From: an uncultured Flammeovirgaceae bacterium
Lineage (GTDB): Bacteria > Bacteroidota > Bacteroidia > Cytophagales > MED-G16
DNA: 58,601 nt
Assembly: GCA_913046795.1 (NCBI GenBank)
Contig: CAJWTC010000003.1
Coordinates: forward strand, 1-58,601
Direction: 5' to 3'
Shown: positions 14,034 to 22,088 of the stretch, piece by piece
How the letters are laid out: every line of letters starts with the position of its first letter
How positions within the stretch are numbered: the stretch's first letter is position 1
Position numbers and translations under genes: made by a program
Notes under the pieces: model-generated
The model's input: only the letters and a program-made list of their open reading frames with translations
Told to the model about the DNA's origin: nothing
Databases searched by the model: none

Positions 14034-14106
14034 GGTGCTGTAGCTCAGTTGGTAGAGCATCGGACTGAAAATCCGTGAGTCGGTGGTTCGAATCCGCCCA
14101 GCACCA
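14034..14106 (+). tRNA. tRNA-Phe (GAA)
   Basis: Acceptor stem GGTGCTG/CAGCACC, D arm GCTC-AGTTGGTA-GAGC, anticodon loop CTGAAAA, T loop TTCGAAT. CCA not encoded. Confidence 0.96.
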
Positions 14107-14115
14107 CTATAAACT

Positions 14116-14445
14116 ATGAAATGGCTTTATCTTGGAATTGCTATTATTATGGAGGTCATTGCAACTAGCGCCCTCAAGGAAAGTAATAACTTTACAAAAC
14201 TTCTTCCTTCCATTTTGGTTGTGGTTGGTTATTCTTTTACTTTTTATTTTATGTCTTTAACTTTGAGAGATATGTCTGTTGGCATAACTTATGCTATATG
14301 GAGTGGAATGGGGATTTTTCTAATTTCTCTAATAGGGTATTTTAGGTATAACCAGACTCTTGACACCCCTGCTATTTTAGGTATGAGTTTTATAGCTCTA
14401 GGTATAATCATTTTAAGGTTTTTTTCTAAATCAATAAACGCATAA
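14116..14445 (+). CDS. SMR family efflux transporter (EmrE/QacE-like)
   Basis: 109 aa with four TM helices, conserved TM1 Glu (IMEVIATSALK) and YAIWSG. Confidence 0.92.
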   Translation: MKWLYLGIAIIMEVIATSALKESNNFTKLLPSILVVVGYSFTFYFMSLTLRDMSVGITYAIWSGMGIFLISLIGYFRYNQTLDTPAILGMSFIALGIIILRFFSKSINA

Positions 14446-14449
14446 TATA

Positions 14450-16687
14450 TCAGAAGTAATATCTTTTAAAAGCTTCCATAGATCCGTATTTTGCAAGACC
14501 AAGATCAGAAAATAATTTTGCTGTATTCTTATTTCTATCTTCTGCCCTTTGCCAAAACTCTCTTGAATCTTGCCCTGGGAAAATTATTACATCTTTTTGA
14601 GATAGGTGCTTATAAATGGCCCTTCTCTTTTTTAGTATTTGTTTTGGGCTTAGCGGAACTGCCATATCAATTTCATCTATTCTCCACTCATCCCAAGCGC
14701 CGCTATATAGCCACACATTACAATTCTTCATGAATGATTTTGATTTCAAGTTATCTATAGATTTATATATTGATCGAAGACAAAGTCTATGAGTACCATG
14801 GGGATCACTCAAATCACCAGCTGCATAAATTTGATGTGGTTTTATTCTATTTATTAAATTTTGAACAACTTTAATATCTGCACTAGATAAATCTTTCTTT
14901 TTTATTTTTCCAGTTTGATAGAATGGCATGTCTAAATTATAAATTTTATTTTTTTCTAACCCTATATAATTACACGCCTGTAAAGCTTCTGATTTTCTTA
15001 TAATTCCTTTGATTTTATTTAATGTATTATCCCTATCAATATCAATTTTTTCTGTTATTAACCTTTTTAAACTATTATGAAAGTTTATTCCCCAAACGAT
15101 ATGATTTTTTTCTAATTTATTTTTTCCGTCACTTATCAACTTATTAAGTTCATTTGTTGATAATGAGACAGTAAGTCTCTTGATAAGTTCTGCTATTTCT
15201 AAAACTTTTTCATTGCTCACAGCTATGTTTCCAGAAGTCTGATATGCTACGTGGACATCGTGTCCTTGATTAATTAGTTTAGAAAAGGTACCCCCCATCG
15301 ATATTACATCATCATCTGGATGTGGAGAGAAAATTAATACCCTTTTTTTATAGGGTTTTGATCTCTCAGGTATATATGAGTCATCAGAATTTGGTTTGCC
15401 TCCAGGCCAGCCAGTTATTGAGTGTTCCAGCATATTGAATACAAGAATATTTGTATCGTATGCAGATTTATAATTTTCAAATATTCCACCCATTCCATTT
15501 TCATTATAATCTTCATCAGTTAACTGTAGTATTGGTTTATTTTTTTTGATACTTAACCATATTATAGCTTTTTTAATATTAATATCCGACCATCCAACTA
15601 TAGATGTACTTAATTTATTTTTAGGTTTTTTATTTATGTTGGTATAGACCCAAGGGCATCTAATTCTATTTAGGCTGGATGCAGATTCTTTATCTAGAAT
15701 AAAAGTACAGTTAGGGTGGTTTTGAAGCAATGACGCTGGTACTAACTCATTTGTTTTTTCTTCGACGGATTTTTTAACAATATTAGATTTACTATCTCCC
15801 CAAGCCACTAGAGTTATTTTCTTGGCCTTAAGAATAGTTTTAATCCCCATAGAAATAGCATCTTTAGGTACGTTTTCAATACCAGTAAATTCGTCTGCTG
15901 CGTCAAATCTTGTTGTTTCTTCAATTTTAACTTTTCTAGTTACTGATGATTCAATAGATCCAGGTTCATTAAATCCAATATGGCCATTTCTACCTATACC
16001 TAATAACTGGAAATCTAATCCTCCAGCTAATTTTATTTTATTTTCAAAATCAACACAGTGACTTTCTATATAATTTGGATTTAAGTCTCCTCTTGGAATA
16101 TTAATATTTTTTTTTTGAATATCTATATGATCAAAAAGAAAATCAAACATAAACTTATGATAGCTATGTCTGGAGTTTGGTTGCATTGGAAAATATTCGT
16201 CTAGATTGAATGTAATTACATTATGAAAGCTTAGTTTTTCTTCTTTGTGCATCCTTACTAGTTCACTATAGATTGAGATAGGAGATGATCCTGTAGCTAA
16301 GCCTAAAACACAGCTTTTTCCTTTGGACTGTTTATCTCTTATTAGGTTTGCAATTTCTAAGGCTACAGACTTTGAACCAATTTTTGGATGTTCAAATAAT
16401 TTAACAGCAATTCTTTCCTTAAAAATACTTTGCTCGTAAAAAATATCACGTGGATCTTCATTTAAATCATAATCTTTTTGGATTGAGTAGTTTAAATTAT
16501 TCTCAATTAAAGTTTTGAGTTCTTTAAGTAAAGATTTTCTTTTATCTAAATTCTTTTCTTTGTTTGGAAATAAATTTTGATTGAAATTGTTACCGTTATA
16601 TACTCTTATTCTTTTTCCTTTTTTATTGTAATAACAGAACGATCTTTCTTTATTAAAATTTATTTTTACTTGTATCTCATGAGACAT
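14450..16687 (-). CDS. nagB: Long-form glucosamine-6-phosphate deaminase (NagB plus PIG-L/LmbE-like domain) with an extra N-terminal putative DNA-binding domain
   Basis: GLATGSSP, FNLDEY and GIGRNGHIGFNEPGS (deaminase); FSPHPDDDVISMGGT and DPHGTH (PIG-L-like). The first ~75 aa are not NagB-like. Confidence 0.92.
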   Translation of the reverse strand: MSHEIQVKINFNKERSFCYYNKKGKRIRVYNGNNFNQNLFPNKEKNLDKRKSLLKELKTLIENNLNYSIQKDYDLNEDPRDIFYEQSIFKERIAVKLFEHPKIGSKSVALEIANLIRDKQSKGKSCVLGLATGSSPISIYSELVRMHKEEKLSFHNVITFNLDEYFPMQPNSRHSYHKFMFDFLFDHIDIQKKNINIPRGDLNPNYIESHCVDFENKIKLAGGLDFQLLGIGRNGHIGFNEPGSIESSVTRKVKIEETTRFDAADEFTGIENVPKDAISMGIKTILKAKKITLVAWGDSKSNIVKKSVEEKTNELVPASLLQNHPNCTFILDKESASSLNRIRCPWVYTNINKKPKNKLSTSIVGWSDINIKKAIIWLSIKKNKPILQLTDEDYNENGMGGIFENYKSAYDTNILVFNMLEHSITGWPGGKPNSDDSYIPERSKPYKKRVLIFSPHPDDDVISMGGTFSKLINQGHDVHVAYQTSGNIAVSNEKVLEIAELIKRLTVSLSTNELNKLISDGKNKLEKNHIVWGINFHNSLKRLITEKIDIDRDNTLNKIKGIIRKSEALQACNYIGLEKNKIYNLDMPFYQTGKIKKKDLSSADIKVVQNLINRIKPHQIYAAGDLSDPHGTHRLCLRSIYKSIDNLKSKSFMKNCNVWLYSGAWDEWRIDEIDMAVPLSPKQILKKRRAIYKHLSQKDVIIFPGQDSREFWQRAEDRNKNTAKLFSDLGLAKYGSMEAFKRYYF

Positions 16688-16742
16688 TATAAATAATATA
16701 TTTTATTAAATATAAATATATAAAATATATCTCATGAGACAT
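16673..16742. repeat. Two identical 15-bp sites TATCTCATGAGACAT with palindromic core TCTCATGAGA
   Basis: Copies at 16673-16687 (covering the nagB start codon) and 16728-16742, separated by 40 bp of pure A/T. Confidence 0.92.
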
Positions 16743-16759
16743 AATTTAAATTTCTTACT

Positions 16760-17479
16760 TTAAAATGATTTAAGTGTTCTAATCTCGTTTTCGGTTAACT
16801 TTCTCCACTTCCCTCTAGGTAAATTTTTTTTTGTTAAAGTCCCAAAAAGGACTCTATCAAGCTTATCTACTTTATAATTTAATGACTCAAAGATTTTCCT
16901 TATAATTCTATTTTTTCCTATATGAATTTCAACTCCTACTTCATCTTTTTTATCTAACCTACTGATATTATTTACATTGACTGATTCTTCATCTATTTTT
17001 ATTCCTAGTTTTATTTTTTTTAAATCTGATTCTTCAAGTGCTCTATCTAGCTTTACATAATATACTTTTTTTACTTTATGTGATGGATGAGTTAATTTTT
17101 TTGTTAAATCACCATCATTCGTAAATAGGATTAAACCCGTAGTTTTTCTATCTAATCTTCCGACATGAAAGACTCGTTCATTCACCCCCTTTAATAATTC
17201 AAAAACTGTTCTTCGACCATGTGTGTCTTTATTTGTTGTTATGAAATCTTTAGGTTTATTTAATAGTATATAGATTTTTTTTTCTCTCTTTACCTCTTTT
17301 TTTTCTATAAAAACCTTATCACTTAACTTAATTTTTTGACCAAGAGTGATGCATTTTTTTCCATTTATGCTAACTAACCCCTTTTTTATTAGATTATCCG
17401 CCTCTCTTCTTGAGCATATTCCTGATTGTGAGATGAATTTATTTATTCTAATTTCTGAAGATTCAGACTTCTTCTTCAT
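16760..17479 (-). CDS. rluB: S4-domain rRNA pseudouridine synthase (RluB/RsuA family)
   Basis: RINKFISQSGICSRREAD, LLNKPK and VGRLDRKTTGL. Follows scpB. Confidence 0.85.
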   Translation of the reverse strand: MKKKSESSEIRINKFISQSGICSRREADNLIKKGLVSINGKKCITLGQKIKLSDKVFIEKKEVKREKKIYILLNKPKDFITTNKDTHGRRTVFELLKGVNERVFHVGRLDRKTTGLILFTNDGDLTKKLTHPSHKVKKVYYVKLDRALEESDLKKIKLGIKIDEESVNVNNISRLDKKDEVGVEIHIGKNRIIRKIFESLNYKVDKLDRVLFGTLTKKNLPRGKWRKLTENEIRTLKSF

Positions 17480-18027: not shown

Positions 18028-18411
18028 CTAACCTCTATTTAATTTAGCTTCTATAGATTGAGTTGCATGTGGGACTGCTCTTAATCTTTTTTTATCAATT
18101 AACTTACCAGTGTCTTTACAGATACCGTAAGTCCCGTTTTTAATTCTTATTAAAGCTTTTTCAAGATTATTTATAAATGTTTGCTGCCTTCCTGCAAGTT
18201 GACTTAAGCTTTCTTTTTCCATTGTATCTGCACCATCTTCAAGAGTTTTAAGAGCCCCCTGTGTTGAGTCAGTTCCAGAGAGATTTTTTCTAAGTAGAGA
18301 TTCTTTAATAAAGTCTAGTTCACTTTGGGCATTATCTCTCTTCTCAAGGATAAGTTTTTCAAATTCTTTTAATTCCTTTAAGTTAAATTTTGTTTTTTCT
18401 TTTTTAGGCAT
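18028..18411 (-). CDS. TraR/DksA family transcription factor
   Basis: Coiled coil with acidic tip (EDGAD), then ALIRIKNGTYGIC..TGKLI...RLRAVPHA. Confidence 0.9.
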   Translation of the reverse strand: MPKKEKTKFNLKELKEFEKLILEKRDNAQSELDFIKESLLRKNLSGTDSTQGALKTLEDGADTMEKESLSQLAGRQQTFINNLEKALIRIKNGTYGICKDTGKLIDKKRLRAVPHATQSIEAKLNRG

Positions 18412-18420
18412 AATGCAAAT

Positions 18421-20802
18421 TTAAAGTTTTCTTTTAATTTCTTTAATTTCAAAAGATTCAATTATATCTCCAACCTTTATATCATTATAATCAGCTATAC
18501 TTAAACCGCACTCGTAACCATTTTTAACTTCGTTTACATCATCTTTAAATCTTTTCAGTTGTTTTATTTTTCCAGTATACACAACGATTCCATCTCTTAT
18601 GAGTCTTATCTTATTCTTTCTTAAAATATTTCCATTAGTAACATAGCAACCAGCTATCGTACCTATTTTTGATATTTTATACGTTTCTCTTATTTCTACA
18701 TTTCCTACAATGGATTCCTCTTCTGTAGGTTCTAACATCCCCTCCATTGCACTCTTTATCTCATTTATTGCTTCATAAATAATAGAATATAATCTTATAT
18801 CGATTCCTTCTTTTTCTGCAAGAGATCGAGCACTTTGAGATGGTCTTACCTGGAAACCAATAATTATTGCATCAGAAGCTGAGGCAAGAAGAACATCAGA
18901 TTCTGTAATTTGCCCAACGCCTCTGTGTATTATATTAACTGATATTTCTTCTGAGGATAGTTTTTCCATAGAGTCAGATAATGCCTCAATTGATCCATCA
19001 ACATCACCTTTTAAAATAATATTTAACTCTTTAAAGCTACCTAGAGCCAGTCTTCTTCCAATTTCATCCAGAGTTACATGTTTTTTTGTTCTAAGTTTTT
19101 GTTCTCTAATCAGCTGCTCTCTTTTCGTGGCAATTTCTCTGGCTTCCTTATCAGTATCAAAGACGTTAAATTTATCTCCCGCCTGTGGTGCTCCATTAAG
19201 ACCAAGCATAAGAATTGGTGTTGCTGGTTCTACAGTTTTTTTCTCGGCCCCTCTATGATCAAACAATGCTTTAACTTTTCCATATTGAGAACCAGCAAGT
19301 ACTATGTCTCCTATATTTAACGTTCCTCCTTGCACCATTATTGTAGTAAGGTATCCTCTTCCTTTATCTAGTTCAGATTCAATAACTGTGCCGATAGCTT
19401 TTTTGTTAGGATTAGCTTTTAATTCAAGTAGCTCTGCTTCTAATAATACTTTTTCAAGTAATTCCTCAACTCCTTCACCTGTTTTAGCAGATACTTCCTG
19501 GCACTGATACTTACCACCCCAGTCCTCGACTAGAATATCAATTTTAGATAGGTCTTCTTTAATTTTATTAACGTTTGCGTTTGGAGTATCAATTTTATTT
19601 ATAGCGAATACTATAGGTACTTCCGCAACTTTACTGTGGTTGATTGCTTCTTTTGTTTGGGGCATGACTGTTGAGTCTGCAGCTATAACAATTATAACTA
19701 AATCAGTAATTTTTGCTCCTCTTGCCCGCATTGCGGTAAAAGCTTCGTGCCCAGGTGTATCAAGAAAAGCTATTTTTTGACCACTATCTGTTTGGACATC
19801 ATAAGCTCCAATGTGTTGGGTTATTCCACCAGCTTCACCTTCTGTAACTTTTGACTCTCTGATGAAATCCAATAAGGAAGTTTTACCATGATCAACATGA
19901 CCCATTATTGTAACTATAGGAGCTCTATTTTTCAGCTCACCTTCTTTATCAGGTACTTCTGTAACAACTATTTCTTCTTCTTCTGAGGTTGTGAACTCAA
20001 CCTTATACCCAAACTCTTCAGCAATTATTGTCATTGTCTCAGCATCAAGTCTTTGATTTATCGATACAAACATTCCAATCTCTAAATATTTTGATATTAC
20101 ATCATTAACACTTACATCCATTAATTTTGCAAGGTCGTTAGCTGAAATAAATTCAGTTACTTTTAATACTTTTGACTCCTCCTCAAGTTTTATCTTTTCT
20201 TCTTCTATGGCTTCTGCATGTTGTGACCTTTTCTCTTTCCTATATTTTGATCTCTTGGTGTCAGAATCTTTTGTTCCACTTAACTTTGCAAGGGTAGACT
20301 TAATTTGATTTTGAATTTCTTTATTTTTTTTATCTTGATCTTCTTGGTTAACTTTTTTAGTATCGTTATTTTTATTAGAGATAATCCTTTTCCTTGGCCT
20401 TCTTTTCTTTTTAGATTGGTCTGATGAAGCAACTCTATTCTTCGTCTCTCCTAGATCAATTTTTTTAATTATTTTGATCTTGCTTACTTCTTTTTTTTCT
20501 TCTTTTTTTTCTTCTTTTTTCTCTTCAATTTTTACCTTATCATTTTCCTTTACACCAACACTCTCAACTTTTTCTATAAATGACTTTTTCTCCTCAAGCC
20601 CTATTTTAATATTTGAGGCAACTTTTTTTTCAACAGCTGAATCTTGAAATGCATTTTCTAGTAATGAAAAGAGTTCTTCATTAATTTTTGTATTTGGATT
20701 AGAATCAATTTCAAATCCTTTACTCTGAAGAAATTCTATTATGGTATTCCTTCCTACATTTAATTTTCTGGCTACCTGGCCTAATCTAATTTGTTTAGAC
20801 AT
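18421..20802 (-). CDS. infB: Translation initiation factor IF-2
   Basis: [24 protein letters not shown] and [16 protein letters not shown] motifs. Confidence 0.98.
20491..20526 (-). repeat. 3 x 12-bp in-frame repeat (EEKK)3 in the IF-2 N-terminal linker
   Basis: Read directly; protein [14 protein letters not shown]. Confidence 0.8.
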
Positions 20803-20811
20803 AATTAATTA

Positions 20812-22053
20812 TTACTCAAATTCTTTTTTAAGTGTATTAATAACTTCTTCGACAGTATTTTCTTCAAGATCAGCTCTTTTAACTAATTCGCTTTTATCAA
20901 GGTTTAAAACTGCTTTTGCAGTATCAAGACCTATTCTTTTTAATTCATCAATTATCCAATTTTCTATTTCATCTGAGAACTCATCTAAATCAACATCTTC
21001 TTCCTGAGATTCATCTAATTCTCTAAAAACATCGATCTCCATCTCAAGTAACCTACTTGCCAATTTTATATTTTGGCCCCCTTTTCCTATCGCAAGGGAT
21101 ACTTGGTCAGGTTTAAGATAGACAGAGACTCTTTTTTCTTCATTATCTATCTTCATGCTTGTTATTTTTGCAGGGCTGAGAGCTCTAGTTATATAAAGCT
21201 CTTGATTATCAGTGAAATTAATAACATCTATATTTTCATTCTGCAACTCTCTAACTATTGAGTGAATTCTCGAGCCGTTCATACCAACACAGGCCCCAAC
21301 TGGATCAATCCTGTCGTCATACGACTCTACACAAATTTTTGCTCTTTCTCCAGGTTGTCTAACAGCCTTTTTAATAGTGATTAATCCATCAGAAATTTCA
21401 GGAACTTCATTCTCAAATAACTTTTCAAGAAAAAGGGGACTGGTTCTAGATAGTGTTATTTTAGGATTTCCTCTAAACATTTCAACACTAGTTACAACAC
21501 CTCTTAATGCGTCTCCTTTTCTATATTTGTCTTTAAATATCTGCTCAGATCGAGGTAGAGATATTTCATTCCCTTCTACATCAACAAGTAAAACCTCTCT
21601 GCTTAATGTTTGATAAATTTCTCCTGTTATGACTTCACCTACAAGATCTTCATATTTATTTATTATAACCTCTTTCTCTAGGTCTTTTACTCTTTGTATA
21701 AGTGTTTGTTTAGCAAGGATCACTGCTCTTCTTCCAAAATCTTTGATTTTTATTTCTTCAGCTACCTCATCTCCTATTTCAAAATCTTCTTCTATTTTCT
21801 TAGCATCAGATAGGGTAATTTTATCAAAGTCCCATATATCTTCAGAGTTATCATCAACAATTTCTCTAAATCTCATAATTTCTAGATCGCCTTTATCAGC
21901 ATTAATTACAATATCAAAGTTTTCATCATATTCAAATTTTTTTTTTATCATAGCCCTAAAAACATCTTGTAATATTCTTATCATTGTTGGCCTATCAACG
22001 TTCTTCTGTTTAGCAAATTCTGTAAATGTTTGTATAAGTACTCTTGTGTCCAT
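20812..22053 (-). CDS. nusA: Transcription termination/antitermination factor NusA
   Basis: FGRRA, DPVGACVGMNGSRI and LAIGKGGQNIKLA motifs. Likely start ATG 22053 (MDTRVLI). Confidence 0.97.
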   Translation of the reverse strand: MDTRVLIQTFTEFAKQKNVDRPTMIRILQDVFRAMIKKKFEYDENFDIVINADKGDLEIMRFREIVDDNSEDIWDFDKITLSDAKKIEEDFEIGDEVAEEIKIKDFGRRAVILAKQTLIQRVKDLEKEVIINKYEDLVGEVITGEIYQTLSREVLLVDVEGNEISLPRSEQIFKDKYRKGDALRGVVTSVEMFRGNPKITLSRTSPLFLEKLFENEVPEISDGLITIKKAVRQPGERAKICVESYDDRIDPVGACVGMNGSRIHSIVRELQNENIDVINFTDNQELYITRALSPAKITSMKIDNEEKRVSVYLKPDQVSLAIGKGGQNIKLASRLLEMEIDVFRELDESQEEDVDLDEFSDEIENWIIDELKRIGLDTAKAVLNLDKSELVKRADLEENTVEEVINTLKKEFE

Positions 22054-22063
22054 AATATTTTTC

Positions 22064-22088
22064 AAAAAAAATGGGGACAAATGTCCCC
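22064..22088 (-). terminator. Intrinsic terminator-like hairpin in the nusA 5' leader
   Basis: Minus strand reads GGGGAC-ATTT-GTCCCC-A-T8, between the promoter and the start codon. Confidence 0.7.

Follow-up and report, generated by a model that had tools for sequence, protein, structure and literature searches.

The nagB fusion gene

The DNA considered here is a stretch of 58,601 nucleotides (the window: positions 1 to 58,601, forward strand, of contig CAJWTC010000003.1 in GenBank assembly GCA_913046795.1) from an uncultured Flammeovirgaceae bacterium of the GTDB lineage Cytophagales; MED-G16. Its minus strand carries a nagB gene for a long-form glucosamine-6-phosphate deaminase that is preceded, in one reading frame, by a domain (the head) related to the N-terminus of tyrosine integrases. 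The gene and its parts are as follows.

14450..16687, minus strand: nagB fusion gene, 745 amino acids (aa); integrase-derived N-terminal domain, linker and long NagB (deaminase, middle region, PIG-L deacetylase-like domain), the last matching NF002557 at 921 bits
16490..16687, minus strand: arm-type DNA-binding domain from a tyrosine integrase, residues 1-66, by homology and model; binding predicted
16436..16489, minus strand: linker, residues 67-84, variable in length and under far weaker constraint (dN/dS, alignment)
15716..16372, minus strand: glucosamine-6-phosphate deaminase domain, residues 106-324, with DEY at 163 and GRNGHIGFNEP at 232 intact (Pfam, alignment)
14777..15337, minus strand: PIG-L/LmbE deacetylase-like domain, residues 451-637, with HPDDD at 456 and DPHGTH at 628 intact (Pfam, alignment)

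An earlier note on this DNA, made from the letters alone, had described an uninterrupted 745-aa open reading frame (ORF), quoted its N-terminus, and found no internal methionine before the deaminase motifs. All of this is confirmed, and codons 2-130 contain no in-frame ATG, GTG, TTG or CTG. The NCBIfam model for long NagB (NF002557, cut-off 384 bits) spans residues 86-744 only and leaves about 85 N-terminal residues unexplained, and Pfam gives no significant match on residues 1-75. The conserved part of the extension comprises about residues 5-66, after which the variable linker runs to about residue 84. Behind it Pfam finds the deaminase and PIG-L domains alone, with no core-binding or catalytic domain of an integrase. 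The motifs DEY163, GHIGFNEP, HPDDD456 and DPHGTH628, which have catalytic roles in the two enzyme domains, are invariant among 31 aligned proteins. The fusion thus resembles long Bacteroidota NagB (NF002557/PRK02122) in matching over cut-off and in keeping both sets of active-site motifs, but differs in its 85 extra N-terminal residues, which are missing from all eight long NagBs of other families in the order. Seventeen other genomes keep the junction between head and NagB in frame, and it is also spanned by a contig of a public run (window 16379-16557; the library is labelled RNA and may hold DNA), so the fusion is not an assembly artefact. Public expression data for the locus consist only of small-share contig runs.

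Integrase origin and fold of the head

Homology links the extension to the N-terminus of a tRNA-associated family of Bacteroidota tyrosine integrases (HHalign probability 99.0, E 5e-18, 73 columns), in which the matched segment lies N-terminal of the core-binding and catalytic domains (PF00589). A profile search with the extension finds integrases at E 1.3e-9, and the three matches not of NagB type among the 54 of a longer search are all integrases. Conversely, 120 of 121 members of the integrase family score above 15 bits at their N-terminus, 106 of them at 40 bits or more. The predicted fold of the head is three strands followed by one helix (AlphaFold, predicted local distance difference test scores 88.7 and 95.9; the alignment included integrase rows), which is the layout of the arm-binding (AB) domains of complex tyrosine recombinases (PMC8138268). 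These profile matches, the HHalign result and the model bear out the resemblance to integrase arm domains that had been noted by eye. The ESM Atlas assigns residues 1-75 of an integrase homologue to Arm-DNA-bind_5 at 0.95, and makes no assignment for the NagB extension. The Pfam arm models match only weakly: Arm-DNA-bind_2 in 6 of 70 rows (best E 0.005), Arm-DNA-bind_5 in four rows, and the Tn916 model in one fusion row (E 0.021).

Residues R15, R26, Y30, N31, P41 and N42 of the head are retained in 12 of 12 aligned fusions, and the invariant residues are the basic sheet residues common to integrases. Residues 1-66 contain 15 K/R against 6 D/E. With the AB domains of lambda Int, Tn916 Int and CTnDOT Int (PMC8138268) the head shares sequence homology, the three strands and helix, and an association with short repeats where the gene begins, close to a tRNA. 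It differs in lacking the core-binding and catalytic domains, in being attached to a housekeeping enzyme and inherited vertically, and in having palindromic rather than tandem sites.

A particular donor is not resolved by a tree of the 73 columns. The integrase-family profile has no match at E 1e-30 in the source assembly, which is 63% complete; profile searches of 301 genomes of the phylum (E 1e-20) and of viral contigs found nothing, and phage records gave catalytic-domain matches only (25-28%). A search for fusion partners in 401 genomes of the class yielded eight other genomes, with frames of 356-395 aa, one of them broken; of four such frames tested, one is an integrase by Pfam and the other three (partial references) gave no family. 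Weak second matches to the arm profile (E 0.003) occur in 387-aa frames of two fusion-bearing genomes (G022 C15:10680-10775 and G020 C11:31762-31857) and are probably other integrases. About 19 integrase loci of the donor family (L075, L078, L080-L083, L087-L089, L091-L096, L098-L100 and L106) have frames of about 300 aa without an arm domain and, by eye, no tRNA fragment; they amount to a sub-group without heads, the reverse of what is seen in the NagB fusion.

Distribution and selection

The head precedes nagB in 18 of the 25 genomes of the family, which are 1.0-1.8 Mb in size. All three genera are represented: 12 genomes of g1 (after one integrase match was subtracted), 4/4 of g3 and 2/2 of g2. 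In a nineteenth genome a contig end cuts through the head. Three genomes of the same genus have instead a short NagB at the same site (L028-L030; 248-258 aa, 40-43% identical), butted against rluB and without head, palindromes or PIG-L domain; three more genomes have no nagB match. In one of the latter (G010 C1, L175) nagB is gone from the slot and the order has closed up as rluB-SMR-tRNA-Phe. A tree of the deaminase domain (29 rows) separates the family from the outgroups with support of 100/100. The short NagBs form a single long-branched clade that nests among the fusions, and monophyly of the fusions is not rejected by the approximately unbiased test (p-AU 0.20). The simplest reading of these sequences, though it is not proven, would be that the fusion arose once, at the base of the family, and was later lost in places.

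Selection on the head was estimated from pairwise counts of nonsynonymous and synonymous change (dN/dS) over residues 8-66 in 13 close pairs, which are not independent of each other. The values are 0.21, 0.07, 0.09, 0.49, 0.09, 0.13, 0.15, 0.03, 0.08, 0.04, 0.32, 0.76 and 0.05; ten of the 13 are at or below 0.21, and few changes underlie the values of 0.49 and 0.76. For three distant pairs the results are 0.20, 0.48 and saturation. The deaminase domain has 0.05-0.42 in the same comparison, and the linker has 0.7-2.7 in six pairs, 0.2-0.4 in five, zero in one and an undefined value in one. Since the head is constrained while the adjoining linker is looser, a neutral scar, which the earlier note had offered as one of two readings, is refuted by the family-wide retention and the purifying selection. 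The same evidence disposes of its other reservation, that the extension might be unique to this assembly and not selected.

Palindromes at the nagB start

Two features that the earlier note had not reported are an intact tRNA-Phe, discussed below, and a pair of palindromes at the start of the gene:

16673..16686, no strand: proximal 14-bp palindrome over the start codon, candidate operator O1 (13/14 against the family consensus; sequence, conservation)
16728..16741, no strand: distal copy, 55 bp upstream and non-coding, candidate operator O2 (sequence, conservation)
16688..16727, minus strand: AT-rich spacer between the palindromes, the likely position of the promoter (sequence)

The proximal palindrome is present with at most two mismatches in all 18 fusion loci, and has at least five mismatches in all 11 nagB loci without the fusion. 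Among the 17 fusion loci with enough flank, 12 have a distal copy with at most three mismatches (shuffle P 0.004 or less each). Its spacings of 52, 52, 55, 54, 55, 54, 73, 62, 61, 61, 61 and 63 bp lie near 5, 6 and 7 helical turns, a modest indication, since there are few independent classes. Two of the five loci without a distal copy (L004 and L033) have extra half-sites instead, and three have none. The arms of the non-coding palindrome are kept across the three genera while the spacer diverges. In genus g3 (L014-L017) the distal palindrome overlaps the stop codon of rluB. Head and sites are both missing from the three genomes with short NagBs, and the sites are missing from the genome with no gene at the slot.

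Most genomes use the central ATG of the proximal palindrome as start codon. The nagB frame of the window and of two relatives begins instead at an ATG on the left arm, and the palindrome is still kept; it is therefore conserved as DNA and not as peptide. The central ATG is out of frame in the window, where it opens a frame of four codons (16665-16679, minus strand). A sigma-70 promoter scan of the region was no better than shuffles, with a model that does not cover Bacteroidota promoters.

The pair in the window gives the only matches with up to two mismatches in the 1.23-Mb source assembly, and nagB is the only one of its 915 ORF starts with such a match. Of 16 exact core matches examined outside nagB (one locus per genome), 15 lie inside ORFs, and the palindrome scans revealed no wider regulon among the matches listed. 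Two palindrome-like sites with three mismatches each, 18 bp apart, are found elsewhere in the source assembly (G000 C79; L179:1433-1464), upstream of what by eye resembles a sugar-phosphate nucleotidyltransferase gene; they are near a contig end and may be due to chance.

The tRNA-Phe locus and the donor integrases

The surroundings of nagB in the window include the following features.

14034..14107, plus strand: intact tRNA-Phe(GAA), convergent with nagB, the probable former integration target (tRNA detection)
14116..14445, plus strand: SMR-family transporter gene between nagB and the tRNA, found in some relatives and not in others (Pfam, locus comparison)
16760..17479, minus strand: S4-domain pseudouridine synthase gene upstream of nagB, the left border of a variable slot (Pfam, locus comparison); presumably rluB-like

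The tRNA-Phe is downstream of nagB and convergent with it in 16 of the 17 loci L001-L017, the 17th ending at a contig edge, and in none of eight outgroup nagB loci. Most of the related integrase loci have a tRNA fragment directly upstream, on the opposite strand. The fragment is tRNA-Phe in 13 of 57 loci (12 on the opposite strand, one on the same), including 4/4 integrases of the same order with an intact head. From this layout the intact tRNA is expected at the element's other end, oriented towards the integrase, and this matches the arrangement of nagB and tRNA-Phe. In 12 genomes of other families no tRNA-Phe occurs within about 1.5 kb of rluB, so that an empty integration site is not available for comparison and the history as an island is an inference.

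The starts of the integrase genes carry repeats of their own. The motif RYG[AC]GNCA was derived from the same loci in which it was counted, namely 57 non-redundant loci with flank (10 others were dropped as duplicates or too short). A tandem pair with a spacing of 11-12 bp is found at the start codon in 21/57 of these, in 0/57 coding controls and in none of 200 shuffles. The commonest repeat is ATGCGCCA (16), and the second, ATGAGACA (8), is the nagB half-site. By its sequence, the half-site of the nagB palindrome is a member of the integrases' own repeat class. Their position suggests that the tandem repeats are arm sites. No palindromes were apparent near the integrase starts, as judged by eye and without a tally. 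The earlier suggestion of a DNA-binding, self-regulating NagB has accordingly gained conserved operator-like palindromes made of an integrase repeat, while the binding itself stays a prediction.

Between rluB and the tRNA the content of the slot varies: the SMR gene and a divergent Met-zincin gene are each present in some genomes and absent from others. The latter (DUF5118/DUF5117/Met-zincin, about 800 aa) shares the palindrome-bearing intergenic region in L033 (1419-3830), L004-L007, L010-L012 and L026, and may be co-regulated, since extra half-sites occur in the shared region. One of the same-genus genomes with a short NagB (G002 C4, L147:3650-4765) encodes what looks like an intact integrase of the donor family; a tandem repeat and a tRNA fragment mark its start, and it adjoins apparent type I restriction-modification genes (by eye). 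Further upstream in the window (18028-22080) there are nusA-infB, then a DksA/TraR-like gene, scpB and rluB, all named by eye; by the same means, no rimP was recognized before nusA and no rbfA after infB.

Metabolic context

GlmS runs the reaction opposite to NagB, and an unregulated NagB would oppose it. A glmS gene is over cut-off in 17 of the 25 family genomes, and the source assembly has only a piece of it at a contig end. No nagA is over cut-off in five genomes searched, and the PIG-L domain may therefore supply the deacetylase. A GntR protein is likewise found in none of the same five genomes, and matches to ROK, the one other regulator family screened, fall in frames of 326 aa or less.

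Proposed explanation and alternatives

The head is homologous to integrase N-termini and under selection, the sites are conserved, and head and sites occur together. Taken as a whole, the sequences point to a domesticated integrase autorepression cassette, in which the NagB fusion probably represses its own gene through predicted binding to the palindromes. In the ancestor of these streamlined marine bacteria, an integrative element of the tRNA-targeting Bacteroidota family would once have occupied the tRNA-Phe. The integrase start, with its arm-type sites and arm-binding domain, would then have been joined in frame to long nagB by a deletion, and the core-binding and catalytic domains would have been lost. 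The host would have kept the module, and the tandem arm half-sites would have become overlapping inverted pairs. Of the resulting 14-bp palindromes, the first covers the start codon, and in most loci another lies 5-7 helical turns upstream. The head would bind half-sites, and the fusion, probably an oligomer presenting two or more heads, would bind dyads and repress its own transcription, possibly by bridging both palindromes across the promoter. The likely benefit would be to cap the deaminase in cells with GlmS, with no need for a separate regulator gene.

Control by a ligand is a more tentative matter. That glucosamine 6-phosphate (GlcN-6-P) or N-acetylglucosamine 6-phosphate (GlcNAc-6-P) relieves the repression is conceivable but somewhat doubtful. 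Slightly more doubtful still is the full scheme, in which the whole autorepression unit was domesticated, its sites were reshaped to in-phase dyads, and an amino-sugar phosphate at the catalytic domains controls the predicted DNA binding, making NagB its own inducible repressor. The NagB of E. coli is a hexamer with allostery, an argument that does not transfer directly to long NagB and need not apply to it.

Among the alternatives, it is improbable that the head binds the sites for the defence of a tRNA hot spot, as a constitutive decoy which, by binding arm sites, represses or jams related integrases on their arrival, with NagB as carrier and the palindromes setting the dose. The tRNA-Phe position of the locus, shared with fragments upstream of related integrases, would suit such a decoy, as would the intact-looking donor-family integrase in the fusion-less G002, but a single genome is no test. 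The fusion-bearing G020 and G022 also have their weak second matches, the slot is still variable among fusion genomes, and the change of the sites from tandem to dyad fits an oligomeric protein of the host that acts at its own promoter.

Just as improbable is a separate transcription factor operating through the palindromes, with the head kept for a role other than DNA binding, for instance in folding, in oligomer contacts or in binding a partner. Dimeric repressors typically use dyad sites, and such a factor might have escaped notice, as the source assembly is 63% complete and the regulator screens covered the GntR and ROK families. However, the half-site matches the integrase repeat class, sites and head occur and vanish together, the invariant residues of the head are those basic sheet residues common to integrases, and no other conserved targets were seen.

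Less probable again is an action of the palindromes as RNA, in which a long stem hides the start codon in read-through transcripts from rluB and so controls translation. The region folds strongly, with the copies paired, in the window (z -4.1) and in L015 (z -4.8), and strong folding is seen in three of seven full regions; but any twin palindrome pairs by construction, and four other loci have z values of -0.7, +0.3, +0.1 and -1.4. Covariation is slight, with a single both-sided change in the inter-copy register, the self-hairpins do not surpass those of shuffles, and several loci have a divergent upstream gene and therefore no read-through from rluB. An equally remote and already largely refuted alternative is a frozen scar, in which nagB depends on a captured promoter and start so that the head cannot be removed without loss of expression; the three genomes with a headless short NagB and the one with an emptied slot speak in its favor, as they show that some lineages can dispense with the head, but in most pairs the head has the same dN/dS as the catalytic domains, whereas the linker drifts, and the non-coding palindrome arms outlast the spacer.

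Comparison with known systems

Among enzymes that double as regulators, BirA, NadR and PutA use helix-turn-helix (HTH) or ribbon-helix-helix domains. These three and RbkR, which has a winged HTH, are trigger enzymes, that is, enzymes with a fused DNA-binding domain (PMC5397151). The NagB fusion is like them in having an intact enzyme and a predicted DNA-binding domain in one selected chain, with conserved and often paired palindromic sites. It differs in that its head and site come from a mobile element. Moreover, ligand control defines trigger enzymes, whereas the NagB fusion is known here from sequence, with a candidate operator at its own gene only.

A precedent for the repression itself is the integrase IntS of KplE1, which represses its own promoter via overlapping arm-type sites, a layout predicted there for most tRNA-linked integrases (PMC2951348). 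In both cases the sites, candidates in nagB, overlap the start and promoter region of the gene itself, and the locus is linked to a tRNA; the product of nagB differs in being a metabolic enzyme with no recombination function, and its repression is predicted. The fusion, which is not itself an integrase, is probably autoregulatory and would work much like a trigger enzyme and like an integrase that represses itself. No fusion of an integrase arm domain to NagB is described in the literature titles and abstracts searched, a coverage outside which most subscription papers fall.

If the explanation is true, a transcription factor and its operator were born in one step from a decayed genomic island, of which donor, target site and motif are still readable. 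A named domain of 66 residues and a 14-bp site make the claim testable by one gel shift, and the fusion would be a convenient way into arm-site recognition in an unstudied family of Bacteroidota integrases. For the organisms themselves, it would mean that an uncultured, streamlined marine family, with no GntR protein in the five genomes searched, limits a potentially wasteful NagB/GlmS cycle by means of the enzyme itself.
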